Source of the DNA: Aggregatilineales bacterium
GTDB lineage: Bacteria; Chloroflexota; Anaerolineae; Aggregatilineales; Phototrophicaceae
DNA: 64,000 bases
Direction: 5' to 3'
NCBI GenBank assembly: GCA_040219275.1
Contig: JAVJSU010000038.1
Coordinates: forward strand, 167,962-231,961
Position numbers and translations under genes: made by a program. Positions 1,044-30,626 of this stretch are shown one piece after another. Below the pieces are notes generated by a model, which saw only the letters and a program-made list of their open reading frames with translations, searched no databases and was not told the DNA's origin. Every line of letters begins with the position of its first letter. The first letter of the stretch is position 1.

Positions 1044-2468
1044 ATGTCCACAATAAGACGCTCCCTCACATGGAAGCTCACGCTTGCCTTTGTATTCGTC
1101 GCCATGATCGGCGTGATCGTCGTCGGTATCTTCGCACGTCAATTGACCACCTCCGCCTTTGATCGTCTGCTGACGGATAACAACCGCATCGAATTCACCG
1201 AACTCGTGACCGCCTATTATCTGCAAACTGGATCATTGGATGGCATAAACGAGTATTTGCGAAATCAGGATCGGGGACGTAACAATCCACAACCGAACAA
1301 TAATGGGCAACGCAATGGAGGAGGAAATGGGCAAAATGGGAATGGGCAGAACAACAACCCGCCCCAACGCCAAGCCCCGCCCTTCGCCCTGATAGACACA
1401 AACAACATCGCGCTCACTGTCGCGCCCCAATTCCGAGTCGGCGCAACCGTGCCACAGCAAATTGCGGAGACGCGCATCCCTGTAGAGATTAACGGCGAAA
1501 CCGTCGCCTATGTCGTCGCGCTTAATCAACCGCCACAACGCGACGCAAACGACGAAGCCTTTCTGCAACGCATCACACAGGCGCTGATTATCGGCGTAAT
1601 CGTCGCCGGTGGTGTGGCACTAATCGCCGGAATTACGTTGGCGCGGTTACTCACCCGCCCGTTACGTGATCTGACCCATGCCCTGCGCGGGATACGTGCC
1701 GGACAGCTCGAACAGAACGTGGCTGTGCGCTCAAAAGATGAGATCGGCGCGGTGGTCGAGGCGTTTAATCAGATGAGCGCGGAACTCGCCCACGCCAATC
1801 AACTGCGAAAGCAAATGACCGCCGACATCGCCCATGATTTACGCACGCCCTTGACCGTTATTTCCGGTTATCTGGAAGGCTTGCAGGATGGCACTCTCTC
1901 GCCGACCTCCACCCGCTTCCAGACGATGTACGACGAAGCGCAACATCTGCAACATTTGATCGAAGATTTACGCACGCTCTCGCTCGCGGATTCCGGCGCA
2001 CTCAAGCTGAACCTGACGACCATCACACCCGATGATCTGCTCCATGATGTGCAGAAATCCTTCGCACCGCTGGCAGAGCAACAACGCATCCGGCTACAGG
2101 TCAAACCATCACCCACCGTGCCAGCCATCATTGCCGACCCGCAACGCCTGTTACAGGTACTCGGCAACCTCATCAGCAATGCCGTGCGCTACACGCCACA
2201 GGGCGGAGAGATTGTCCTTAGCACGATGCAAAACGGCACGGATGTACAATTGACCGTCAGCGATACCGGCGCGGGTATCCCGCCGGAGAAATTGGCGCAT
2301 ATCTTTGATCGTTTTTATCGGGTGGATGAATCACGCACAGATGACAACGGCACGGGGCTGGGACTCGCCATCGCCAAATCCATCGTGGAAGCACACGGCG
2401 GCAGTATCTTCGCGGAGAGCATCCCCGGCAAAGGAACACACATGGTCATCCGTTTGCCTGCATCATAA
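1044..2468 (+). CDS. Sensor histidine kinase (N-terminal TM helix, periplasmic segment, second TM helix, HAMP, HisKA, HATPase_c).
   Basis: H-box ADIAHDLRTPLT, N-box LISNAVRYT, G-boxes DTGAGI and GTGLGLAI, and a HAMP-like segment after the second TM helix. The start is adjacent to the response-regulator stop, consistent with a two-component operon. Confidence 0.9.
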   Translation: MSTIRRSLTWKLTLAFVFVAMIGVIVVGIFARQLTTSAFDRLLTDNNRIEFTELVTAYYLQTGSLDGINEYLRNQDRGRNNPQPNNNGQRNGGGNGQNGNGQNNNPPQRQAPPFALIDTNNIALTVAPQFRVGATVPQQIAETRIPVEINGETVAYVVALNQPPQRDANDEAFLQRITQALIIGVIVAGGVALIAGITLARLLTRPLRDLTHALRGIRAGQLEQNVAVRSKDEIGAVVEAFNQMSAELAHANQLRKQMTADIAHDLRTPLTVISGYLEGLQDGTLSPTSTRFQTMYDEAQHLQHLIEDLRTLSLADSGALKLNLTTITPDDLLHDVQKSFAPLAEQQRIRLQVKPSPTVPAIIADPQRLLQVLGNLISNAVRYTPQGGEIVLSTMQNGTDVQLTVSDTGAGIPPEKLAHIFDRFYRVDESRTDDNGTGLGLAIAKSIVEAHGGSIFAESIPGKGTHMVIRLPAS

Positions 2469-3084: not shown

Positions 3085-3597
3085 TTACGCCTCGTCGCTG
3101 TTGAGCGATCTCCACAGGCGATAACCCGATAGCAAAAACAGCACGGTAATCAGGGCTTCATGCGTCAAGCACCACGGGCAATACGCCTCGATGAAAACCG
3201 CCTGCACATAAATCAGGTACATCGAGAACAAAAACGCGAACAACACCACGCCGAAAATCAGCGTCACGCCAAATTCACGCAACATCTCCACACGCGGTTC
3301 GAGAATCAGCAAACTCAGCACGATTAAATTGGTCGCCAATCCCAACCATGCAATCGGAATGCCCGCAAGCTCGGAATAGGCGCTATTCAGCACCACACCA
3401 CAATCAAAGCTCCCCGTGTTCAAACAGATAGCAGGTTCACCGCTATCAATTTTGAGGTAGCTCAGATAGGCGCTGATGAAAATGGCGAAAAAGAGGACGA
3501 CAAAACTCAGCGTCCGTGCGGAAAGGCTGAAGCGACTTGAGGTCGAAGCCATGTCGATCTGTTCAGTGTTCGTAGCCACAATTCCCTCTATTATCAA
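3085..3597 (-). CDS. Vitamin K epoxide reductase (VKOR) family membrane protein.
   Basis: About 4-5 TM helices. A loop cysteine pair (CLNTGSFDC) and a CPWC redox motif at the start of the last TM helix match the VKOR architecture. Confidence 0.7.
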   Translation of the reverse strand: MIIEGIVATNTEQIDMASTSSRFSLSARTLSFVVLFFAIFISAYLSYLKIDSGEPAICLNTGSFDCGVVLNSAYSELAGIPIAWLGLATNLIVLSLLILEPRVEMLREFGVTLIFGVVLFAFLFSMYLIYVQAVFIEAYCPWCLTHEALITVLFLLSGYRLWRSLNSDEA

Positions 3598-3692
3598 CTC
3601 ATGTTTGGCAATCTAATATGCACATTATACCAAGCGACAATGAATAGACCTACCATTGACCGCGCCAGCAACCCGCATAATTTACAGACTTT

Positions 3693-5150
3693 TTACACGT
3701 CGTCGTGCCGATCTAACCGTTCCCATTCCGCCGCCCGCACCCGCGCCAATGCCCGCCATTCCGCCGCCACCGGCACAACGCCCAATTCCCGCACGATCTG
3801 GCGCGCCGCCAACCCGACAATCGCCGCAAATGTGGGATACGCCAATTCCAGCGAAGCCAGCTTATCGACGGTCAATTCGCCTGCCATGCCCGCAGAGACG
3901 ATCTGCACCACCTCTACAGCCTGCTCACCGACCACATGCGCGCCGATGACCTGCTGAGTCTGCTTATCGACGATCAATTTGCAGAAGCCCACCGTGCGCC
4001 CATCAATCACGGCGCGATCAAGCTCCGAATACGGCACCTTGGCGACGATAACATCGTGACTCTCGCGGGCTTGCGCTTCCGTCATGCCCACGCCCGCATA
4101 TTCGGGATCGGTGAAGCCGCCATGTGGCACCAGCGTATGATGAATCTCCACATCGTCCGGCAACAGCGCATTTTCGACTGCCGTGCGTGCCTGCATACTC
4201 GCGCTTTGCACCAGCATCATTTTGCCCGTAATATCCCCTGCCGCGTAAATATGGGGCACACTTGTCCGCAAATAATCATCGACTTTGATGTAACTTTTCT
4301 CGACTTCCACGCCCGCCGAGTCCAAGCCGAGATGATCGACATTACCGGGCCAACCCACGGAGAGAATCACCGCTTCAGCTTCACAAGTTGCTTCGCCTTC
4401 GTCCGTGGAATATATCAGCGACAAGCCCTCGTCTATTTTCTCGACACGCTCAATCCCCTTGATGCCTAAGAGCATGTTGATGCCCGACTCTTCGAGTTGC
4501 TCCGCCATCAAATCCGCAACAGACCGATCTTCCGTCAGCAAAATGCGCGGGGCAATATCCACCAGCGTGACCTCACTGCCGAACGCCTCAAAAATCGACG
4601 CAAGCTGACAGCCTGTCGCGCCCGTGCCGACGATTGCGACAGATTTTGGCAAATGGTCAAGCCGCCACACATCGCTATGAGTCAGCGTGAATTCCGCGCC
4701 GGGGAACGGCAACTTGCGCGCATGTCCACCCACGCAAATGATAATACGCTCGCCCTGCACCGTGTCCCCATTGCCGAGTTGCAGAGTGTGCGCGTCGACA
4801 AAGTGTGTATCGCCTGCTTCGCTATAGACCTGAATCTCCATGTCCATCAGATGGTCGAGCAGTTGTTTTTTCTCATGCACCAGATAGACGACCTGTTGCG
4901 TCCGTGCCAGTACATCACGGAAATTCACTTCCGGCTTCGGCGCGGATAAGCCATAGAGCGCGAACTGTTCCGCATCGCGCACCAGACGGGCGGCTTTCGC
5001 CAGCGAACGCGTCGGCACACAGCCATCATTGGTACACGTCCCGCCCAGTCGATTGCGTTCGATCAAGGCGACGGACGCGCCCAATTCACGCGCCCGTAAC
5101 GCCGCTGTCACCCCCGCCGGACCGCCCCCCAACACCACCACATCAAACAT
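3693..5150 (-). CDS. Class-I FAD-dependent pyridine nucleotide-disulfide oxidoreductase (dihydrolipoyl dehydrogenase / mercuric reductase / glutathione reductase family).
   Basis: N-terminal FAD fold VVVLGGGPAGVTAA, redox-active disulfide GGTCTNDGCVPTR, a second Rossmann fold VAIVGTGATGCQLA, and a C-terminal dimerisation region. Exact substrate was not resolved. There is an unusual roughly 35-aa Arg/Ala-rich C-terminal tail. Confidence 0.8.
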   Translation of the reverse strand: MFDVVVLGGGPAGVTAALRARELGASVALIERNRLGGTCTNDGCVPTRSLAKAARLVRDAEQFALYGLSAPKPEVNFRDVLARTQQVVYLVHEKKQLLDHLMDMEIQVYSEAGDTHFVDAHTLQLGNGDTVQGERIIICVGGHARKLPFPGAEFTLTHSDVWRLDHLPKSVAIVGTGATGCQLASIFEAFGSEVTLVDIAPRILLTEDRSVADLMAEQLEESGINMLLGIKGIERVEKIDEGLSLIYSTDEGEATCEAEAVILSVGWPGNVDHLGLDSAGVEVEKSYIKVDDYLRTSVPHIYAAGDITGKMMLVQSASMQARTAVENALLPDDVEIHHTLVPHGGFTDPEYAGVGMTEAQARESHDVIVAKVPYSELDRAVIDGRTVGFCKLIVDKQTQQVIGAHVVGEQAVEVVQIVSAGMAGELTVDKLASLELAYPTFAAIVGLAARQIVRELGVVPVAAEWRALARVRAAEWERLDRHDDV

Positions 5151-10896: not shown

Positions 10897-11011
10897 CCCC
10901 TCACCCCCTAAATCCCCCTCTCACACAAGGGCTAGAGGGGGACTTGAAATAGCAATCGCAAGCCACACAGTGAAGCTCCCTTTCTCCTCATTTTGGGAGA
11001 AAGGGCGGGGG
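10897..11011. repeat. Two adjacent GC-rich hairpin repeat units (cccctcaccccctaaatccccctctcacacaagggctagagggggactt and gctccctttctcctcattttgggagaaagggcgggggg).
   Basis: Same family as the copies at 16569-16668, 24857-24902, 26589-26634, 32800-32836 and 34277-34316 (CCCCTC...GAGGGGG stems). Confidence 0.6.
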
Positions 11012-11028
11012 GATAGAGGGCTATTCGT

Positions 11029-16568: not shown

Positions 16569-16668
16569 CCCCCCTCTAAATCTCCCCCCGCTTCGCAAGG
16601 GGAGACTTACAAGCCGAACGGCTCCTCCCCCTCTTTGCGAAGCGGGGAGGGGGCTGGGGGGAGGGGAT
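16569..16668. repeat. Two GC-rich hairpin repeat units in the lysY-lysZ intergenic gap (cccccctctaaatctccccccgcttcgcaaggggagactt and ctcctccccctctttgcgaagcggggagggggctggggggagggga).
   Basis: The first unit is the exact reverse complement of the copy at 34277-34316. The second is about 80% identical to the 45-bp units inside the YfhO-flippase ORF. Confidence 0.7.
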
Positions 16669-21307: not shown

Positions 21308-22213
21308 GTGTTGTTAGCGAGGACAATTTATCGTATGCTGAACGATCCACCGCCAGAAAAAAAACGTAGCGTCCATCCACTAGAAGACCGCGCAGAAGGC
21401 ATCCGTCGCGCCGCAAGAGAAGCACAGGCACAAGAGCAACCTGCCGGAGAAGGTGGTCGCCAGCGGGTGATGCTCAGAATCCCCGTCGCCAAACCCAACT
21501 TAACCTATGCACTCATCGCGGTCAATGTCGCCATTTTCGTCGTCATGTTTTATATCCTATCGCCCGATCAACTCAATGACATTTACGAATGGGGCGCGAA
21601 CAATAAATTTACTGTGCTGGAACAGGGTGAATTTCATCGCCTGCTGACAGCCATGTTCATGCACGGCAGTCTCACCCATCTTGCCTTTAACATGCTCTCA
21701 CTATACGTCATCGGGCAAACGGTAGAACGCTTCTTCGGGTCTATTCGCTTTGCCCTGATCTACTTTCTCGGCGGGCTGGCAGGCTCTGTTTTGAGCGTGC
21801 TCATCAATGCGCCGGAAGTCAATTCCGTTGGCGCATCCGGCGCAATCTTCGCCATTGTCGGCGCAGAATTGGTCTTCTTATACAAGCACCGCAAGCTCTT
21901 CGGCGCGATGGCACAACAGCAACTCCGCAGTCTCATCATCATTATCGCGCTTAATTTATTCGCCGGGTTCGCCAGTAATCTGACCAACGTCGGCGTAAGC
22001 ATCGACAATTGGGGACATATCGGTGGCTTCATCGGTGGTGCATCACTCGCATGGTACATCAGCCCGTTCTTCCTGCCACGCGCCCATCCAGATCAACCCG
22101 GCGCGCTGACCATTGACGACGTGAATCCACTCGACGGGCAATTTCAGAACTTGATGATTTATATTTCCGGCTTGCTCGCCATTATTATTGTCGGCGTACT
22201 CATCACGCGCTAA
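21308..22213 (+). CDS. Rhomboid-family intramembrane serine protease.
   Basis: A six-TM core, the catalytic GASGAIFAIVGA (GxSG) motif, and a His in the last TM helix (GHIGGFIGG). Confidence 0.85.
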   Translation: MLLARTIYRMLNDPPPEKKRSVHPLEDRAEGIRRAAREAQAQEQPAGEGGRQRVMLRIPVAKPNLTYALIAVNVAIFVVMFYILSPDQLNDIYEWGANNKFTVLEQGEFHRLLTAMFMHGSLTHLAFNMLSLYVIGQTVERFFGSIRFALIYFLGGLAGSVLSVLINAPEVNSVGASGAIFAIVGAELVFLYKHRKLFGAMAQQQLRSLIIIIALNLFAGFASNLTNVGVSIDNWGHIGGFIGGASLAWYISPFFLPRAHPDQPGALTIDDVNPLDGQFQNLMIYISGLLAIIIVGVLITR

Positions 22214-22985: not shown

Positions 22986-23116
22986 TAAAACACGCAACTT
23001 TCACGCTCGACTGGTCGCACTATTATTTTCCCAACGATAGTTCAACGCTTCACGCCATACACTGGTAAAAGCCATCTGGCATGTGTATAGTGTCGGGCGA
23101 ACTAACACGAGAGGGA

Positions 23117-26100
23117 ATGTTCATGCGTCGCTACACACCGGATTTTGCGCTGATTGTCCTGCTATTCATCTTGCCACTGATTCTCTTCAGCCAGCAGACC
23201 CTCGGCGGGCGCACCCTCTTGCCTACAGAAAACCTCTATCAATATGAACCCTACGCCACCTATCGGGAGGTGGTCAACGCGCCGGATGTCCCGCATAATC
23301 ATTTGCTCTCAGACCTTGTACTCCAGAATATGCAGTGGAAATCCTTCATCCGCGAAAGCATCGACCAGCGAGAAGTCCCGCTCTGGAATCCCCATCAATT
23401 TTCCGGCATTCCCTTCATGGCGGCGGGACAACAATCGACCCTCTATCCCTTAAGCCTCATCTATTACGTCATGCCCCTGACCGCCGCCTATGGCTGGTTC
23501 ACGGTCTTCAATTTATGGCTGGCGGGCATGTTCATGTTGATGCTCATGCGCGGGCTTGGCGTGGGACGGTTTGGGGGGATGGTCGCCGCTGTCACTTATC
23601 AGCTATGTGGATTTTTCATCGCCAGCGCCGTCTTCCCGATGATCCTCGGCGCGGCGGTGTGGATGCCCCTGATTCTCCTGATGATCGAATTTATCATCCA
23701 GCAAAAACCACTTTTCGGCAGACCGTCCAGCCTGCCGTGGATGATCGTTGGCGCGGTTGCCGTCGCCTGTAACATCTTCGCCGGACACGTCGAATTGACC
23801 ATTTATAGCCTGCTCATCGCTGGATTTTACGGCGGCGCACGCTTACTCTGGAACATCTGGCAAAATCGCACCCCCTACACGCCCCACCTCAAAGCCGCTG
23901 GATGGATGCTGGCAATGGTTCTGCTCGGCTTTAGTCTGGGCGCGTTGCAATTTATCCCGCTATTTCAAGTCGCCAACGACAACTGGCGCTCCGAACGTGC
24001 CGACCTCAGCGAGGTGCTCGGTTATGCTCATGCCCCGCGTGATGTTCTGCAATTCGTCATGCCCAACTTTTACGGCAGTCCCGCCGACCATAGCTATTTT
24101 GACATCTTCACGCTGGAAGAAACGCCTGTCACGGTCAACATGGCTGGCGAACCCATCACCCACACCGAATGGGGCATCAAAAATTACGTCGAAGGGGCGC
24201 TCTATCTCGGCATTCTGCCCTTGATTCTGGCGATCTTCGCCTTATTTATGCCCGCACCGATCAACACCGACCCCACCAAACCGCCACCCTTCAAATGGAT
24301 TTTCGCCCTGCTCACGCTGATCTCGCTGACGTTCATGTTCGGCTTGCCCACCTATGCCGCTATTTACTTCCTGCCCGGCATCAATCAACTCAATTCGCCC
24401 TTTCGCTGGGTCTACGGCGTGACCCTCGGCGTGGCGATTTTAGCGGGCTTCGGCGCACATGCCCTGACGGTGTTGGACATCAACGGGCGCAAATGGGCGC
24501 GACGCTTCGGCTACGGCTTAATCGCACTCGCCCTGCTCATTTTTGCTGGATTGCTCGTCAGTCGCCTGATTTTTCCCCAGATCGAATCGACCATCAGCAA
24601 CGCACTATCAAGCCTTGCCGGACAGGGCGGCGAAGTCGCGGCGGATCGGTTCTCCGGCGCACAGATGTTTTTCAGCTATCAATTCGTCAACGCCCTCATC
24701 TTTGGTGTGATGCTTCTGGCTTCTGGCATCATCTTCTGGTTTTTCGGAAGAACACTCAACGAGGAGGGCGACCTAACAGGTCGCCCCTACAAAGGTCGCC
24801 CTCATACCTCGCATAGACTCGTCGGCGCAGGTAAAGGGTCTCTCGAAACCGATGTCGCTCCCCCTCGCCCCTTGTGGGAGAGGGGGCTGGGGGGTGAGGG
24901 GGCTATAATCGCCGTCCAAATCTTCGCCATCGCCCTTATCGCCGTTGACCTCATAATCGCCTCAGCCGAATTCAATCCCGCCTCAGACCCCAATCTGCTG
25001 GATTTCACGCCGCCTGCCGTTGAATGGCTACTTGAGCGTCAAGCGGAAGAAGGCGCGTTCCGCTACACAACGATAGACGCACCCGCGCAGGGGCTGGATA
25101 ATATGCTCCAGCCGAACATGACCATGCGCTACGGGCTGGCGGATATTCGCGGCTACGATAGCATCATCTCGTCGCAATATGTGGAGTACATGCGCTCAAT
25201 TCAAATCCAACCACAGCTTGATTTCAACCGTGTTGCGCCCCTGTATTTAGACCGCATCGAAGCCGACGAAGTGAATTGGTCACGCCTGAATTTGCTCAAT
25301 GTGCGCTACATCGTCACGCATAACGAAATCACCCTCGCGGAAAATTTGACCACCACCAGCGATCCGCGCCGTTTTGCACCCCCGCTCGAACTGGTTTATG
25401 CGGATGAAGCGGTCAATATTTATCGCAACAATGGCGCTTACCCGCGTGCCGCTTTAACAGAACCCTTAGACGGACAAATCCCCGGCTTCGAGACGCAATT
25501 TGTCACTGGTATGCAAGCGACCATCACCCGCGATACCGGACGCGAACGGTTTGTTGATGTCGACATCAACGGAGTCGCCACCCATTGGTTGCTCATCAGT
25601 GAAACCTATGCTGACGGCTGGCGGGCGTACATCCGTCCACAGGGCGCATCTGACGATTACGAAAAACCGCTTGATGTGGTACGCGTGTTCGAGACTCTGC
25701 AAGGCATAGAAATCGCACCCAACGCACTCGCGGAGCGTTATGGTGAGGGTGATGTAGGCGAGGCTGAACAAACCGCCATCATCGACGGACGCTATACCCT
25801 GCGCGTCGTCTATAGCCCGACGAGCTTTCAGGTCGGCTTATTCGGCACGCTCATCAGTGGCGCGTTGATCGTCTTTATGGCGGGCGTGTGGCTGTGGCGT
25901 TTATGGATCGTGCCAGATTCCGGAGAGGGATCAACCACCTCGCGCATCGCCCGCAACAGCCTTGCCCCAATCATCCTCAACCTGTTCAATCGGGGTATTG
26001 ATTTCGTCTTTGCGTTCGTCATGCTCCGCATCCTCGGACCGGAAGACGCAGGCATCTATTATTACGCGGTGATCGTCTTCGTCTGGTTCGATATTTTCAC

Positions 26101-27496
26101 CAATTTCGGCCTGGATGTCTTTCTCATCCGCGAAACCTCCCGCAATCGGGATTCCGGTGGATTTTTCTTCTTCAACACCACCTTTTTACGCCTCGGCTTG
26201 ATGGTCGCCTGCGTCCCGCTTCTGCTCGGATTCTTACTCGTCCGCCAATCCATCATCGACCCCGCGCTGAATCAAGAGGCGTTGCTGGCGATTGGTCTGC
26301 TCTATATCGGGCTTGCGCCGGGGAGTCTCAGCAAGGGGCTGACCTCGCTCTTTTACGCCTTTGAACGCGCCGAATATCCCGCCGCCGTCGCCACCGTCAC
26401 CACCATCAACAAAGCGGTGCTCGGCTTAATCGTCCTCTTGCTCGGTTACGGCATCATCGGTCTGGCAGGGGTGAGCATCGTTGTAAATCTGGTCACGCTC
26501 GGCATCCTCTACGTCGGAGCACGCCAATTTATCAACCCGCGTAGGGGCGACCTGCTAGGTTCGTCAGAACCCGGTAGCCCTTCTGACGATGCTCCCCCTC
26601 GCCCCTTGTGGGAGAGGGGGCTGGGGGGTGAGGGGAAAACAAATATCAAACCCGATACCAAACTAATACGTGGGATGGTGAACCAGAGTTACCCGCTCAT
26701 GCTCAATCATTTTCTGGCGACCATTTTCTTCCAGATCGACGTGGTGATTCTGGAAGCCATGCGCGGCGCGGTCATCGTCGGTAAATACAGCGTCGCCTAT
26801 CGCTGGCTACTGGCACTGAACGTCATCCCTGCCTTTTTTACACAGGCACTTCTACCTGTCATGTCCCGTCAAGCCAACGAAGATCGGGTCGCCCTGCGCC
26901 GAACCTACACACTCGGCATCAAGCTGATGGTCGCGCTAGCCTTCCCGCTGGCAGTCGCCTTCACCTTTCTCGCCCAACCGCTCACCCTCTTACTCGGCGG
27001 CAACCAATTTTTACCAGAAGGCGCAATCGCCCTGCAAATCATGATCTGGAGCATCCCCCTCGGCTGGATCAATAGCCTGACGCAATATCTGCTCATCGCG
27101 GTAGATTTACAACGGCGCATCACACGGGCGTTCGCCGTCGCCGTGACCTTCAACATCGTTACGAATCTCATTTTCATCCCGCGCTTTGGCTATCAGGCGG
27201 CGGCAATCACCACCATTTTGTCTGAACTGGTCTTGCTCATCCCCTTTGCCATCCTCACACACGGCGCGTTAAACGGCGTGCGCTGGCTCGATCTCATCTG
27301 GCGGCAAGCCGTTGCGGCGGGGGTGATGTTCGCCGTGATGCTGGTCGGCTGGTCGAGCGTTCCCGTTCTTGCCCTCATTATTGGGAGTACGCTCTATCCG
27401 GTGATTCTGCTGGCGCTCCGTCCCTTCAATGCAGACGAACTCGCCCGCCTCACCCCGCTCATCCCCACACGCTTCAAATGGCTGGTTGGGAATTAG
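23117..27496 (+). CDS. Fusion membrane protein: N-terminal YfhO-family membrane glycosyltransferase-like domain (about aa 1-900) plus a C-terminal MOP/Wzx-type polysaccharide flippase domain (about aa 950-1471).
   Basis: The N terminus has the YfhO-like multi-TM topology (MRRYTPDFALIVLLFILPL...NPHQFSGIPF). From about 25930 (IARNSLAPIILNLF...ILGPEDAGIYYYAV) it has the typical start of Wzx/polysaccharide-biosynthesis flippases, with about 12-14 TM helices. It is one continuous frame with no stop codon. Confidence 0.7.
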   Translation: MFMRRYTPDFALIVLLFILPLILFSQQTLGGRTLLPTENLYQYEPYATYREVVNAPDVPHNHLLSDLVLQNMQWKSFIRESIDQREVPLWNPHQFSGIPFMAAGQQSTLYPLSLIYYVMPLTAAYGWFTVFNLWLAGMFMLMLMRGLGVGRFGGMVAAVTYQLCGFFIASAVFPMILGAAVWMPLILLMIEFIIQQKPLFGRPSSLPWMIVGAVAVACNIFAGHVELTIYSLLIAGFYGGARLLWNIWQNRTPYTPHLKAAGWMLAMVLLGFSLGALQFIPLFQVANDNWRSERADLSEVLGYAHAPRDVLQFVMPNFYGSPADHSYFDIFTLEETPVTVNMAGEPITHTEWGIKNYVEGALYLGILPLILAIFALFMPAPINTDPTKPPPFKWIFALLTLISLTFMFGLPTYAAIYFLPGINQLNSPFRWVYGVTLGVAILAGFGAHALTVLDINGRKWARRFGYGLIALALLIFAGLLVSRLIFPQIESTISNALSSLAGQGGEVAADRFSGAQMFFSYQFVNALIFGVMLLASGIIFWFFGRTLNEEGDLTGRPYKGRPHTSHRLVGAGKGSLETDVAPPRPLWERGLGGEGAIIAVQIFAIALIAVDLIIASAEFNPASDPNLLDFTPPAVEWLLERQAEEGAFRYTTIDAPAQGLDNMLQPNMTMRYGLADIRGYDSIISSQYVEYMRSIQIQPQLDFNRVAPLYLDRIEADEVNWSRLNLLNVRYIVTHNEITLAENLTTTSDPRRFAPPLELVYADEAVNIYRNNGAYPRAALTEPLDGQIPGFETQFVTGMQATITRDTGRERFVDVDINGVATHWLLISETYADGWRAYIRPQGASDDYEKPLDVVRVFETLQGIEIAPNALAERYGEGDVGEAEQTAIIDGRYTLRVVYSPTSFQVGLFGTLISGALIVFMAGVWLWRLWIVPDSGEGSTTSRIARNSLAPIILNLFNRGIDFVFAFVMLRILGPEDAGIYYYAVIVFVWFDIFTNFGLDVFLIRETSRNRDSGGFFFFNTTFLRLGLMVACVPLLLGFLLVRQSIIDPALNQEALLAIGLLYIGLAPGSLSKGLTSLFYAFERAEYPAAVATVTTINKAVLGLIVLLLGYGIIGLAGVSIVVNLVTLGILYVGARQFINPRRGDLLGSSEPGSPSDDAPPRPLWERGLGGEGKTNIKPDTKLIRGMVNQSYPLMLNHFLATIFFQIDVVILEAMRGAVIVGKYSVAYRWLLALNVIPAFFTQALLPVMSRQANEDRVALRRTYTLGIKLMVALAFPLAVAFTFLAQPLTLLLGGNQFLPEGAIALQIMIWSIPLGWINSLTQYLLIAVDLQRRITRAFAVAVTFNIVTNLIFIPRFGYQAAAITTILSELVLLIPFAILTHGALNGVRWLDLIWRQAVAAGVMFAVMLVGWSSVPVLALIIGSTLYPVILLALRPFNADELARLTPLIPTRFKWLVGN
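24857..24902 (+). repeat. A 45-bp GC-rich hairpin repeat unit inserted in-frame in the YfhO-domain region (translated APPRPLWERGLGGEG).
   Basis: gctccccctcgccccttgtgggagagggggctggggggtgagggg is identical to the unit at 26589-26634 and related to intergenic copies. Confidence 0.8.
26589..26634 (+). repeat. Second in-frame copy of the 45-bp GC-rich repeat, in the flippase-domain region (translated APPRPLWERGLGGEG).
   Basis: A 45/45-nt match to 24857-24902. Both copies are preceded by a GGCGACCT-N-AGGTCG mini-palindrome about 70-90 nt upstream. Confidence 0.8.
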
Positions 27497-27617
27497 TTAT
27501 CTATCGATTCTGTAAGCAACATTTACATTTCCAAACGCTAAATTCATAAAAATTAAGAAACTTTGCACATAATCGAGTGTAAAATGAGTCTATAAGATTT
27601 TTACACGAGGTTGATTT

Positions 27618-28490
27618 ATGAAAAAGCACTTTCTCTTGATTGTTTTGTTGAGCGGTTTGTTTATCTTTTCCCAGAATTTTGTTTTCGCGCAACTATTCAA
27701 TCCACAGGATTATGTCGTTGACATTTTTATTACCGATGATGGCGGTAACTGTGGAGAAATCCCATCGCCTGTATATCAATTTAGCCACACACTCCTTCAC
27801 GTTGTCGTTGATATAAACAGGTTACAGCAAGATTTTAATATAGCCGTTGTTACACTAAACGTTGATGATGCAAATAATACGTTTATCGGTTGGGCTGGCT
27901 ATGTTATTCCTGAAAACAATCCGCCACAGACAAGCGACTTGCGTGGCAGAATTCATGGAACGGAAGCGTTCGACTTTGCATCTGCTCATGCGCCCACAGC
28001 TAGACCATGGTCTATAACGTTGAATTTCATAGATAACGTTACTTTTGAAGAATATTCTTCTGATCCTATTGTCATTGATCCCGCCGAGTATCTTGCTTCC
28101 TGTGCGCGTCTGCCTTATATCGGCATAGACGGAAACATCTTACCCATCAACGAAGGCAACAGCGAAAATGAAGTCGCCGTCTATAACGCCAAGGACGACA
28201 ACGGCGACCCGACGCTCCACATTTACGACATCAACGACGAGGGCGATGGCACACTCGCACTCGAAATCACACAGGGCATCATCGCGCCCTATATCGACAA
28301 TCCGCCCGCCGAAAACACCGCACTCATGACCAGCGACAACGGCAAAGTGACGCTTTACGTGCTCGATACAGGCGAGCTACAAATCAACAGTGGACCCGAC
28401 GCTGAGGGCAAAATTCACGTCCTCATCTTCGACGGTATCCCACCCACCAACATCTACGGCTATGTGATTGATCCCATAACTACGGAATAA
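27618..28490 (+). CDS. Secreted hypothetical protein, paralog 1 of a tandem three-gene family (variable N-terminal domain + conserved C-terminal domain).
   Basis: Signal peptide MKKHFLLIVLLSGLFIFSQNFVFA. The C-terminal roughly 115 aa (LPYIG...INEGNSENEVAVYNA...LHIYDIN...TLALEITQ...DNPPAENTALMTSDNGKVTLY...GELQINSGPDAEGKIHVLIFD...PPTNIYGYVIDP) is shared with the next two ORFs. Confidence 0.7.
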   Translation: MKKHFLLIVLLSGLFIFSQNFVFAQLFNPQDYVVDIFITDDGGNCGEIPSPVYQFSHTLLHVVVDINRLQQDFNIAVVTLNVDDANNTFIGWAGYVIPENNPPQTSDLRGRIHGTEAFDFASAHAPTARPWSITLNFIDNVTFEEYSSDPIVIDPAEYLASCARLPYIGIDGNILPINEGNSENEVAVYNAKDDNGDPTLHIYDINDEGDGTLALEITQGIIAPYIDNPPAENTALMTSDNGKVTLYVLDTGELQINSGPDAEGKIHVLIFDGIPPTNIYGYVIDPITTE

Positions 28491-28500
28491 AGGAATTTCC

Positions 28501-29343
28501 ATGAAAAAATATCTGATTTTGATCGCACTGTTAATCGTTTTGTCTGTGACAACAATAACAGCATATGCCATCACGCCTCCGACTTCAGTGACAATAGTAG
28601 GCTTTAATGACGTTAGTAGGGATTGTGGACAGACACCATATACTTGGATTCCCGAACAACAAACAGAAGGCATGATGATTTATTTACAAGTTGCGACAAT
28701 CCAGATGCATGAGCCTTTCGATTATCATAGTATCTTTATTAGGGACCGTAATGGTGTTCTTATAGGACGTTTTAGATCTCATAGTGCACGTGGACATATT
28801 CACCACATTCCCATCAATGGATATGAACTGGATACGGGAGCACCAACTGCGCTTCCATGGATTATTTCTATCTATGACCATCCTGACAATTTGGAAGAAG
28901 ACCTTGAAATTTTCATTCCAATGGGAGAATTTGTGTTTGATCCATCAACTATCAATTCTGCCTGCGAACGTCTCCCGTATATCGACACCCAGAATATCGA
29001 ACCTATCAATTATAACGTAAACGAAATTGCCGCCTACAACGCCACCGACGACAACGGCGAACCGGCTCTGCACATCTACGACATCAACACCGAAGGCGAC
29101 GGCACACTCGCGCTCGAAATCACACAGGACATCATCGCACCCTACATCGACAATCCGCCCGCCGAAAACACCGCGCTCATGACCAGCGACAACGGCAAAG
29201 TGACACTCTACATGCTCGACACGGGCGAATTGCAGATCAACAGCGGACCCGACGCAGAGGGCAAAATTCACGTCCTCATCTTTGATGCCATCCCACCCAC
29301 CAACATCTACGGCTACGTCATCGACCCGCCGTTATTTCCGTAA
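28501..29343 (+). CDS. Secreted hypothetical protein, paralog 2.
   Basis: Signal peptide MKKYLILIALLIVLSVTTITAYA. The C-terminal domain is about 90% nucleotide-identical to paralogs 1 and 3. The N-terminal half is divergent. Confidence 0.7.
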   Translation: MKKYLILIALLIVLSVTTITAYAITPPTSVTIVGFNDVSRDCGQTPYTWIPEQQTEGMMIYLQVATIQMHEPFDYHSIFIRDRNGVLIGRFRSHSARGHIHHIPINGYELDTGAPTALPWIISIYDHPDNLEEDLEIFIPMGEFVFDPSTINSACERLPYIDTQNIEPINYNVNEIAAYNATDDNGEPALHIYDINTEGDGTLALEITQDIIAPYIDNPPAENTALMTSDNGKVTLYMLDTGELQINSGPDAEGKIHVLIFDAIPPTNIYGYVIDPPLFP

Positions 29344-29356
29344 ACAAATCACCATC

Positions 29357-29391
29357 GGGGAGCGCGTTACTGAGAACGCTCCCCTTATTCC
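29357..29391 (+). terminator. Intrinsic terminator hairpin (ggggagcg-N-cgctcccc + ttatt) after paralog 2.
   Basis: An 8-bp GC stem 14 nt after the stop, followed by a T-rich tract. Confidence 0.5.
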
Positions 29392-29489
29392 TTAACTTAA
29401 ATCAAACCGAAAATTCAGAAAATTTAACATATTTTGCAAAGAATAGTCTGTAAAATAGTTAAGTAAGATTTTCTAGCATAGGAAAAATT

Positions 29490-30422
29490 ATGAATAAACG
29501 CATTCTTCTACTTGAGACACTCATTTTCACAATACTCACCATTTCCAATTCCATAGTCATGGCTAATTCAATTGACATCAGAAACATCTTTGTCAGAGAA
29601 TCCAATCCGGGTGGAAATTGTGGTACATTGCCCATAATAGTTGGTCCCGGAGTAGCTCCACCTTATATAGGCGATAGTTCTGCGACGACCACACACTTAG
29701 GTTTTGATATTGAAGTTGCGTCATTTTTGGCGAGTTTTTCTGGTGAAATGCCCAGAATTTACTTTGAAATACACGATGCGAATAACGTCTTTCTCGGTGG
29801 ATTTGGTACAAGTCTAAGCGGGGAAACATCGCCTTATCGCTCCGTTGAAGTACTATTAGGAGCAATAACTCTGGGAACAGGATCACCAACTCATATAGGG
29901 TATCCGCCAACTGCGCGTCCTTGGACGATTACCGTGATATTTGGTAATCAGATAATCGGAAGCAGTGGTTCTTCTGAAATCATAGAAGAACCACCATTAT
30001 ATTATACGTTTGATCCCGCTGACTACAACGAAAATTGCCGGGTACTTCCCTACTTAGGTGCAGGCAACAGCTTACCCATCAACGAAGGCAATAGCGAAAA
30101 CGAAGTCGCCGCCTACAACGCCACCGACAAAAATGGCGAACCCGCCCTGCACATCTACGACATCAACGACGACGGCAACGGCACACTCGCCCTCGAAATC
30201 ACACAGGACATTATCGCGCCTTACATCGACAATCCGCCGAGCGAAAACACCGCGCTCATGACCAGCGAAAACGGCAAAGTCACGCTCTACATCCTCGACA
30301 CGGGCGAGCTACAAATCAACAGCGGACCCGACGCAGAGGGCAAGACTCACGTCCTCATTTTCGACGGCATCCCACCGACCAACATTTACGGCTACGTCAT
30401 CGACCCGCCGTTATTTCCCTAA
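29490..30422 (+). CDS. Secreted hypothetical protein, paralog 3.
   Basis: Signal peptide MNKRILLLETLIFTILTISNSIVMA. The conserved C-terminal domain and the two conserved Cys positions (GGNCG...; NENCRVLPY) are shared with paralogs 1 and 2. Confidence 0.7.
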   Translation: MNKRILLLETLIFTILTISNSIVMANSIDIRNIFVRESNPGGNCGTLPIIVGPGVAPPYIGDSSATTTHLGFDIEVASFLASFSGEMPRIYFEIHDANNVFLGGFGTSLSGETSPYRSVEVLLGAITLGTGSPTHIGYPPTARPWTITVIFGNQIIGSSGSSEIIEEPPLYYTFDPADYNENCRVLPYLGAGNSLPINEGNSENEVAAYNATDKNGEPALHIYDINDDGNGTLALEITQDIIAPYIDNPPSENTALMTSENGKVTLYILDTGELQINSGPDAEGKTHVLIFDGIPPTNIYGYVIDPPLFP

Positions 30423-30432
30423 CAAATCGCCA

Positions 30433-30470
30433 AAAGGGGAGCGTGTGTTGAACACCTCCCCTTTTTTGTT
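30433..30470 (+). terminator. Intrinsic terminator (aaggggag...ctcccctt + T6) after paralog 3.
   Basis: A GC stem with an inner gtgtt/aacac stem, followed by tttttt. Confidence 0.65.
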
Positions 30471-30626
30471 GCCCGATCAAACCGGATATGCACCGCACCC
30501 ACTCCCCCAATCATTAGGGGACTGCGGGGTTTTCAATTCTCCTTATAATTAAACTATCAACAATTATTTTTTACTGACCACTGATAATTGTTTACTGAAA
30601 ACTATTAACTCTCGAAAGGACGGGCT

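Follow-up and report, generated by a model that had tools for sequence, protein, structure and literature searches.

Divergent heads on a conserved C-terminal module: a tandem gene array in an Aggregatilineales genome and its module family in Chloroflexota

Results

Three tandem genes encode secreted proteins with unlike N-terminal halves and a nearly constant C-terminal half

We analyzed a stretch of 64,000 nucleotides (the window) of contig JAVJSU010000038.1, assembly GCA_040219275.1, from an Aggregatilineales bacterium. Three tandem genes in the window, here called A, B, and C (Table 1), each encode a secreted protein in which a variable N-terminal half (the head) is joined to a nearly constant C-terminal half that contains a module of about 110 amino acids (the C-module). 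The predicted proteins are identical to database entries P0002 (RLP44_24750), P0006 (RLP44_24745), and P0001 (RLP44_24740), respectively, from an Aggregatilineales metagenome-assembled genome (MAG). An earlier note, made from the nucleotide sequence alone, had described three tandem secreted paralogs, and we found them as described. By eye, all three proteins have a Sec-type N-terminus with K/R, a hydrophobic stretch, and then VFA/Q, AYA/I, or VMA/N. Ten nucleotides separate the stop codon of A from the start of B, and these two genes are probably on one transcript; C is probably monocistronic.

The mature N-terminal halves of A, B, and C are 22-33% identical in pairwise amino acid alignments, in contrast to 84-85% amino acid identity (81-85% nucleotide identity) for the C-terminal halves from a conserved LPY onward. 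The division into divergent N-terminal halves and a near-identical C-terminal domain was therefore as the earlier note had proposed.

The heads have diverged around a conserved scaffold. Two cysteines bracket each N-terminal domain and are invariant in 13 of 13 close relatives, in agreement with the earlier note. Our family statistics on position, signal peptides, cysteines, and heads come from 137 sampled members, of which 106 have exactly two cysteines in the N-terminal part; the conserved pair is a probable disulfide. Two motifs said to be shared by the three heads, GGNCG and TARPW (PTARPW in our alignment), were exact in A and C only, and B has SRDCG and PTALPW in their place. Across 20 diverged N-terminal domains, the elements GDCG, DxNGxxIG, PT[AS]RPW, and FDPxxYxxxCxxLPY are kept. 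In a search among 5.8 billion proteins, the best identities between heads of different genomes were 30-42%, and one pair within a genome reached 55%.

Known domains were not found in these proteins. Scans of the three proteins with Pfam, NCBIfam, PHROGs, and PADLOC gave nothing significant, and those with Pfam and NCBIfam were empty even at E ≤ 10; no match to a well-known family appeared that might account for the architecture. A profile of the N-terminal domain had only a marginal match in the PDB, to thrombocorticin (E = 0.05). We rejected a PA-IIL/LecB-type lectin, with an hhalign probability of 0.2% against an approximate LecB sequence and no match to PF07472. The proteins end in ...YGYVIDPPLFP or ...DPITTE, and we read no transmembrane segment, sortase motif, or lipobox in A, B, or C. 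We therefore set aside sortase (LPXTG) substrates and lipoproteins: there is no hydrophobic tail, and the first cysteine is about 20 residues past the predicted cleavage site.

Table 1. Features of the array and its surroundings, in window coordinates.
Feature	Position	Strand	Description	Basis
Gene A	27618-28490	+	290 aa; signal peptide about residues 1-24, N-domain with Cys45 and Cys162, C-module	Open reading frame (ORF) list and alignment
Gene B	28501-29343	+	280 aa	ORF list and alignment
Gene C	29490-30422	+	310 aa; signal peptide, N-domain with Cys44 and Cys183, C-module	ORF list and alignment
C-module of A	28146-28475	+	About 110 aa	Family hidden Markov model, hmmsearch E = 1.4e-47
C-module of B	29014-29328	+		hmmsearch E = 2.2e-45
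C-module of C	30075-30407	+		hmmsearch E = 5.1e-48
Core repeat in A, B, and C	28159-28458, 29012-29311, 30091-30390		87-88% identical nucleotides	
Codon-usage step	27690-30407		At the boundary of the halves in each gene	
Leader of A	27530-27617	+	Promoter-like; boxes GAAATTCA, TTAAGA, TTGCA, and GTAAAAT, then ribosome-binding site	Homology to other array leaders
Leader of C	29402-29489	+	Promoter-like	Paralogous copy of the A leader
Hairpin after B	29357-29384	+	GC-rich, weak T-tract; -16 kcal/mol, z = -3.4, 0 of 200 shuffles as stable	Homologous to terminator after C
Intrinsic terminator after C	30432-30471	+	Hairpin 30432-30465 and T-run; -21.1 kcal/mol, z = -3.6, 0 of 200 shuffles as stable	
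Second hairpin after C	30480-30545		No better than shuffled sequence	
Upstream membrane protein gene	23081-27496		1471 aa; YfhO-like and Wzx-type parts	
Rhomboid-family protease gene	21308-22213		About 5 kb upstream of the array	
Palindromic repeat, in frame	24857-24901, 26591-26635		45 nucleotides, GC-rich	
Palindromic repeat, degenerate	10975-11019, 16624-16668		Intergenic	

The C-module is strongly conserved and is predicted to be an all-beta domain

Substitution patterns point to strong purifying selection on the C-module, one of the explanations in the earlier note. Over the C-terminal halves, synonymous divergence (dS) was 0.53-0.79 and nonsynonymous divergence (dN) about 0.10, for a ratio (omega) of 0.14-0.18 by the Nei-Gojobori method. 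In a core of 87 codons, nucleotide identity among the copies is 87-90%, synonymous changes make up 63-84% of the differences, and omega is 0.04-0.14. The earlier description of the domain as about 90% identical with mostly synonymous differences thus holds for this core.

The predicted structure of the module is a meander of beta strands. In the full-length AlphaFold2 model of C, the C-terminal domain is confident, and the N-terminal domain is beta-rich with lower confidence. A model of the module of C alone, built on 56 sequences, had a predicted local distance difference test score (pLDDT) of 93.1 and a predicted template-modeling score (pTM) of 0.84, and consists of eight consecutive antiparallel strands and one helix. 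Near-invariant residues (P, N, T, Y, L, G, E, Q, N, G, P, and G) fall in the conserved motifs NPPxxNT and, following it, LYxLTTGE-x-Q-x-N-x-GPD-x-EGK. Because alternate residues of a beta strand point the same way, the alternation E-x-Q-x-N would put a polar stripe on one face of a strand, which suggests a binding or interface surface.

A search of BFVD with the module model returned nothing at E ≤ 0.001, and the module profile had only a marginal match among PDB sequences, to a WD40-like hairpin of 30 residues. We rejected a WD40 or beta-propeller identity: neither repeated four-stranded blades nor similarity to the propeller fold was found. The module has no known relative in the PDB or BFVD, a scope too narrow for it to be called a new fold.

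The module defines a large family in Chloroflexota

Further copies of the module, for which the earlier note had suggested a search, are abundant. Among 1.84 billion cluster representatives, 862 matched the module profile at E ≤ 1e-3, of which 427 also passed E ≤ 1e-10. In about 125 of the 137 sampled members, the module is followed by 0-8 residues, and in 123 the N-terminus resembles a signal peptide. In none of these 137 proteins is the module covered by a Pfam or NCBIfam model. A minority have recognizable extracellular heads (PKD, Chlam_PMP/POMP repeats, TSP3/MtsC-like, SdrD_B, P-domain, and cupredoxin), and one has a choice-of-anchor R domain upstream of the module. In other phyla, extracellular heads of these types are found on proteins with C-terminal sorting tags. 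The comparison to a variable head on a constant anchoring domain, made in the earlier note, fits the architecture of the family as a whole.

We scanned species-representative genomes with a profile of 10 sequences and found 30 loci, all of them in Chloroflexota MAGs (Anaerolineae, Aggregatilineales) except for one in a MAG labelled Bacteroidetes. Family proteins are called 'hypothetical' where the source names them, and we found no description of the module family in the literature. As judged from these searches, the C-module defines a large undescribed family, and the range seen is Chloroflexota, mainly Anaerolineae.

The position and conservation of the module bear on what it might do. One alternative to an anchor is that the module itself is the functional part, binding a ligand or acting as an effector (a soluble lectin-, inhibitor-, or bacteriocin-like protein), with the N-terminal halves serving as targeting, shielding, or pro-domains. 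The conservation of the core exceeds the needs of a mere tether, the near-invariant stripe is polar, and the shortest members (150-200 amino acids, for example those of locus L009) have little beyond a signal peptide, a linker, and the module; the lack of a transmembrane segment, sortase motif, or lipobox (by eye) also agrees with a soluble protein. However, a strict C-terminal end behind many unrelated heads, including choice-of-anchor, is typical of anchor or sorting modules. There is neither an immunity-like or partner gene nor similarity to a known lectin, toxin, or inhibitor fold, and we regard an active module as unlikely.

A second alternative is a folded signal for export or sorting, like that of cargo of the type IX secretion system (T9SS), which a dedicated but putative Anaerolineae machinery would recognize and then cleave or attach covalently. 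The module is extremely C-terminal in about 90% of members, co-occurs with an N-terminal Sec signal and diverse cargo heads, and resembles T9SS C-terminal domains in size and all-beta nature. Nevertheless, neither the three proteins nor the 137 relatives matched TIGR04183, PF18962 (Por_Secre_tail), or related models in Pfam and NCBIfam, and we rejected T9SS cargo as an identity. No machinery genes are co-located among the flanking ORFs, and known sorting domains, T9SS C-terminal domains included, are much less conserved in sequence than the window module. Chloroflexota are generally regarded as single-membrane bacteria, and such a host would need no second translocation step; we know of no T9SS in this phylum. 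We consider a sorting signal quite improbable.

Arrays with the same design are present in other assemblies

The number of copies varied from one to at least five among loci, many of which are single-copy. At L001, three copies come directly after the orthologue of the membrane protein gene that precedes the array in the window (83% nucleotide identity between the two). L002 has at least five tandem copies on a 3.7-kb contig that opens in the tail of one copy (1-60) and closes inside another (3138-3725). There are four copies at L013 and two each at L009 and L011.

The pattern of a variable N-terminal and a constant C-terminal half recurs with unrelated heads. In the array of L013 (5317-9370), the N-terminal parts are Cys-rich domains with 27-31% identity, and the C-terminal parts are 54-93% identical; in that of L009 (5647-7312), they are Pro/Cys-rich linkers with 46% identity, and the C-terminal parts are 93% identical. 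Two further features were seen at these loci. L013 contains an ORF of 123 amino acids, with a module 93% identical to that of its neighbor, which may be a truncated copy. At L036, a fragment of an IS200-like (Y1) transposase (1398-1721, minus strand; by eye from the translation) is directly downstream of family member P0007.

These arrays also bear on whether the three genes are an assembly artefact, i.e., a collapsed or expanded repeat. Repeats of this kind do break assemblies, as the ends of the L002 contig within module-bearing genes illustrate. However, 10-13% of core positions are not shared between window copies, whose N-terminal halves are unalignable, the locus is on a contig of 397,901 bp, and the same array design is found in the independent assemblies of L001, L002, and L013. 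The paralogs are real, and an artefact is barely credible.

The two halves of the genes have different histories

To avoid alignment artefacts, we restricted the count of differences to fourfold-degenerate sites in codons whose aligned residues are identical. Within the window, 44 of 62 such sites differed in the N-terminal halves (0.71), about the saturation level for their base composition, versus 44 of 139 in the C-terminal halves (0.32; Fisher p = 2.6e-7). The values for N- and C-terminal halves, respectively, were 0.74 and 0.55 between the window and L001, 0.71 and 0.52 between the window and L002, 0.69 and 0.47 within L001, and 0.68 and 0.45 within L002. A single-copy flanking gene differed at 34 of 77 sites (0.44) between the window and L001. 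Because the window modules differ less from one another (0.32) than does the flanking gene (0.44) or the C-terminal halves between genomes (0.52-0.55), the modules are younger than the species split; their N-terminal halves are far older. In a tree of modules, the window copies formed a clade with 87% bootstrap support, and B and C both end in the tail PPLFP and are followed by homologous terminator hairpins. The more recent shared history of the C-terminal halves implies conversion or recombination limited to the module; gene conversion had been among the explanations in the earlier note.

The heads are under constraint that is relaxed but not lost. N-terminal halves of the window copies are synonymously saturated (proportion of synonymous differences at least 0.76), with dN of 0.78-1.06, and when window genes are compared with their syntenic counterparts at L001, dN of the N-terminal halves (0.78-0.83) is about as high as dS in the flanking gene (0.82). 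The sole unsaturated pair, P0010 and P0004 of L002, had an omega of 0.26 in the N-terminal half versus 0.11 in the module, the basis for our view of constraint. Positive selection on the heads was not demonstrable, as most pairs are saturated and the usable pair gives 0.26. Two suggestions of the earlier note fared less well on these data: a recent duplication does not fit saturated N-terminal halves and arrays in several diverged genomes, and active selection for diversity of the N-termini does not fit the omega of the one informative pair.

Codon usage changes abruptly at the boundary between the halves

Each of the three genes has a step in codon usage at the boundary of its two halves, which was absent from the earlier note and is added by this analysis. 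The GC content of third codon positions (GC3) rises from about 0.32 to about 0.75: from 0.34-0.36 to 0.68-0.72 in A, from 0.29-0.32 to 0.75-0.79 in B, and from 0.31-0.32 to 0.75-0.78 in C (0.29-0.36 and 0.68-0.79 overall). By comparison, GC3 is 0.74 in the flanking gene and 0.46-0.71 (median 0.61) in the long ORFs of the window. GC content at the first and second positions is equal in both halves. The step is a switch from codons ending in T or A (T3, the fraction ending in T, 0.38-0.45) to codons ending in C (C3 0.55-0.62) with G3 constant, and both extremes are beyond the range of all 47 ORFs of the window (C3 maximum 0.46, T3 maximum 0.37). Part of the excess of C over G is due to a regional strand skew. 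The window has a negative GC skew over roughly its first 34-36 kb and a skew near zero beyond, and in the first part C3 exceeds G3 in plus-strand genes and G3 exceeds C3 in minus-strand genes.

The step is also present in L001, L002, L006, and L036 and is absent from distant family members. In five loci, GC3 of the N-terminal halves is 0.31-0.39 despite backgrounds of 0.46-0.60, and GC3 of the module follows and exceeds the background. Candidates for its cause are selection on codons or translational accuracy in the module, biased conversion, mutational bias, and a separate origin of the head cassettes.

The divergence and the codon step together allow a simpler history to be weighed, in which the genes are old tandem paralogs whose domains are under different constraint, there was no conversion, and the low dS and C-ending codons of the module reflect synonymous selection for translational accuracy or speed. 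The pure third-position switch with constant G3 resembles such codon selection, or a directional bias, more than GC-biased conversion. However, the two halves are on the same mRNA and selection on codons at the level of expression should affect both. In the young L002 pair P0010/P0004, the N- and C-terminal halves have nearly the same dS (1.32 versus 1.15), with the difference in omega given above, which indicates that conversion is not universal, and the modules of L001 and L002 do not group by genome. In the window, by contrast, the modules have diverged less than the flanking gene has between the window and L001 although both genomes share the array, the copies form a well-supported clade, and B and C share their 3' tail and terminator. 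A history of this kind is rather unlikely, in our judgment.

Another explanation concerns the heads: hypermutation or replacement of the N-terminal halves, through a diversity-generating retroelement (DGR), a deaminase, or a pool of cassettes exchanged across species. The uniformly low GC3 of N-terminal halves in five loci with different backgrounds speaks for this explanation, as does a nonsynonymous divergence of heads on a par with dS in the flanking gene. Against a DGR target, there is no near-identical or template-like repeat of any N-terminal half in the 64-kb window, where the sole repeat family at the locus is the C-module; moreover, the variable regions of a DGR stay alignable to their template and deviate from it mostly at adenines, unlike these halves at 22-33% identity. 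Since the large protein search found no relatives of the N-terminal halves closer than 30-42%, apart from the one within-genome pair, there is no sign of recent head exchange. Hypermutation or cassette replacement is, we think, very improbable.

Based on these results, module-confined conversion or recombination combined with strong purifying selection is the best fit to the divergence data.

Leaders and terminators were duplicated along with the genes

A and C are each preceded by a promoter-like leader, and leader and terminator have been duplicated along with the gene. Homologues of the leader, about 80 nucleotides long, are ahead of array genes at L036 (335-422), L001 (472-559), and L002 (2099-2186), making four genomes with the window, and they are more conserved than the adjoining coding N-terminal halves. 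The leader boxes are not spaced like a canonical sigma-70 -35/-10 pair, and a search of the leaders against Rfam found no family. Of the two terminator hairpins that the earlier note had placed at the end of the array, one is strong and lies after C; the second there is no better than shuffled sequence, and another hairpin is found after B.

The genomic neighborhood of the array is not conserved

Upstream of the array is a gene for a membrane protein of 1471 amino acids with a sub-threshold match to YfhO in its N-terminal part and a Wzx-type Polysacc_synt match in its C-terminal part. This ORF appears to fuse a YfhO-like region of membrane glycosyltransferase type with a Wzx-type polysaccharide flippase; the C-terminal part is conserved and syntenic in L001. 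Two identical copies of a palindromic repeat (Table 1) are in frame within it, each adding APPRPLWERGLGGEG, and the second is inside the Polysacc_synt match. The palindrome looks like a hairpin element of the repetitive extragenic palindrome (REP) or miniature inverted-repeat transposable element (MITE) kind that is tolerated within coding sequence.

Downstream are an NfeD-like ORF, a Band_7 flotillin, and then a major facilitator superfamily (MFS) transporter. The NfeD-flotillin pair named in the earlier note was confirmed for the flotillin; the NfeD match is sub-threshold (25.1 versus 29.1 bits) yet covers the full length of the model. Other near neighbors encode rhomboid, thymidylate kinase, RIO, and GNAT proteins. 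We propose no link between the array and the rhomboid-family intramembrane protease because the array proteins lack a transmembrane tail.

The suggested link to NfeD and flotillin did not hold when the neighborhood was compared. Only the upstream gene is kept at L001, where UxuA-like and HAD genes follow the array. Across 28 loci with 109 flanking ORFs, any one Pfam family was seen at most three times, and Band_7 and NfeD were outside the 25 most frequent families. Because no family recurs among these ORFs, we rejected an NfeD-flotillin (SPFH) operon partner, take the adjacency to be incidental, and conclude that there is no conserved partner, immunity, or secretion gene.

Discussion

The arrangement described here, with a constant anchor-like module, variable heads, a tandem array, and partial concerted evolution, is of a known kind. 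The novel parts are an undescribed domain family and an unusual step in codon usage within genes.

Several known systems resemble the array in part. The C-terminal domain of T9SS cargo, SLH/CWB2 domains, and choline-binding repeats are likewise folded all-beta modules of about 100 amino acids at the extreme C-terminus of Sec-exported proteins, combined with many heads and restricted to certain lineages, but they have no similarity in sequence or fold to the window module. Myxococcus TraA and the yeast Flo adhesins also join a variable head at the N-terminus to a C-terminal region that is constant, and come from multicellular or aggregating organisms; their heads, however, are PA14 lectin domains with MYXO-CTERM or GPI anchors, and the window proteins have no PA14 match. 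In the sap S-layer family of Campylobacter fetus and in the hypervariable domains of flagellins, a conserved segment for assembly or anchoring accompanies an exposed part that differs, with recombination via the conserved segment, and in fliC the variable region is compositionally distinct from the rest of the gene. No S-layer or filament is known for the window proteins. Moreover, sap has its conserved part at the N-terminus and a single promoter that is relocated by inversion, whereas the window units have their own leaders in the same orientation.

The earlier note had also likened the genes to contact-dependent systems with variable effectors. Polymorphic toxins and contact-dependent inhibition (CDI) proteins are indeed secreted and modular, pairing a constant half with a highly variable one, often in tandem cassettes. 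We rejected this identity: the polarity is reversed, as toxin systems have a constant N-terminus and a variable C-terminal toxin; there is no immunity ORF, the gap between A and B being 10 nucleotides and that between B and C holding only the hairpin and the leader, with no plus-strand ORF of 60 amino acids or more; and neither a known toxin or trafficking domain nor any match in PADLOC or Pfam was found.

We favor the reading that the C-module is a constant attachment or assembly module that displays variable heads on the surface of Anaerolineae, with a probability of roughly 0.45, i.e., somewhat below even odds. It takes as its basis the observed architecture, the family and its taxonomic range, purifying selection, mosaic history, and the codon-usage step; from these we infer the surface location, the role in anchoring or assembly, and the recognition targets of the heads. 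The combination of a Sec signal, diverse heads, a strictly C-terminal, lineage-restricted, and conserved module, and no partner genes leads to this reading, and the lack of a recurrent neighbor family fits a self-contained Sec substrate. The module would hold the protein on a lineage-specific component of the envelope (wall polysaccharide, S-layer, or sheath) or would oligomerize, and the N-terminal half would be an exposed, beta-rich domain that tolerates variation. The repeat unit would be a gene with its own leader and terminator, and arrays would grow and shrink by unequal recombination between modules. Conversion or recombination would homogenize the module only and halt at the domain boundary, making each gene an evolutionary mosaic.

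Several points weigh against this reading. The module has no similarity in sequence or fold to known wall-binding, S-layer, or sorting domains, it could be the active part instead of an anchor, and structure collections other than the PDB and BFVD may contain a known relative. With regard to homogenization, the modules of L001 and L002 that do not cluster by genome and the equal dS in the two halves of the L002 pair count on the other side, and the bias of the module toward C-ending codons lowers the ceiling of synonymous saturation, exaggerating the contrast between the halves.

A bolder version is that the module is a possible new fold of a display or assembly system specific to Anaerolineae, and that the arrays are a repertoire of recognition heads, for recognition of kin or filaments or for evasion of phages and predators or as decoys, with heads renewed at the domain boundary from a pool of AT3-rich cassettes. 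Such a pool would explain the GC3 of about 0.31-0.39 in N-terminal halves across differing backgrounds. We consider this version doubtful.

Anaerolineae are abundant filamentous bacteria of sediments, sponges, and wastewater sludge, and to our knowledge their cell surface is almost uncharacterized. As a lineage-wide C-terminal element found in hundreds of secreted proteins, the module is a good candidate for a means by which surface proteins are attached or assembled in these bacteria, and a confident model without a match in the libraries searched makes it worth structure determination and an entry as a new domain family. The codon-usage step and the mosaic history make these genes a compact natural case of recombination, codon selection, and domain-specific divergence within one gene.

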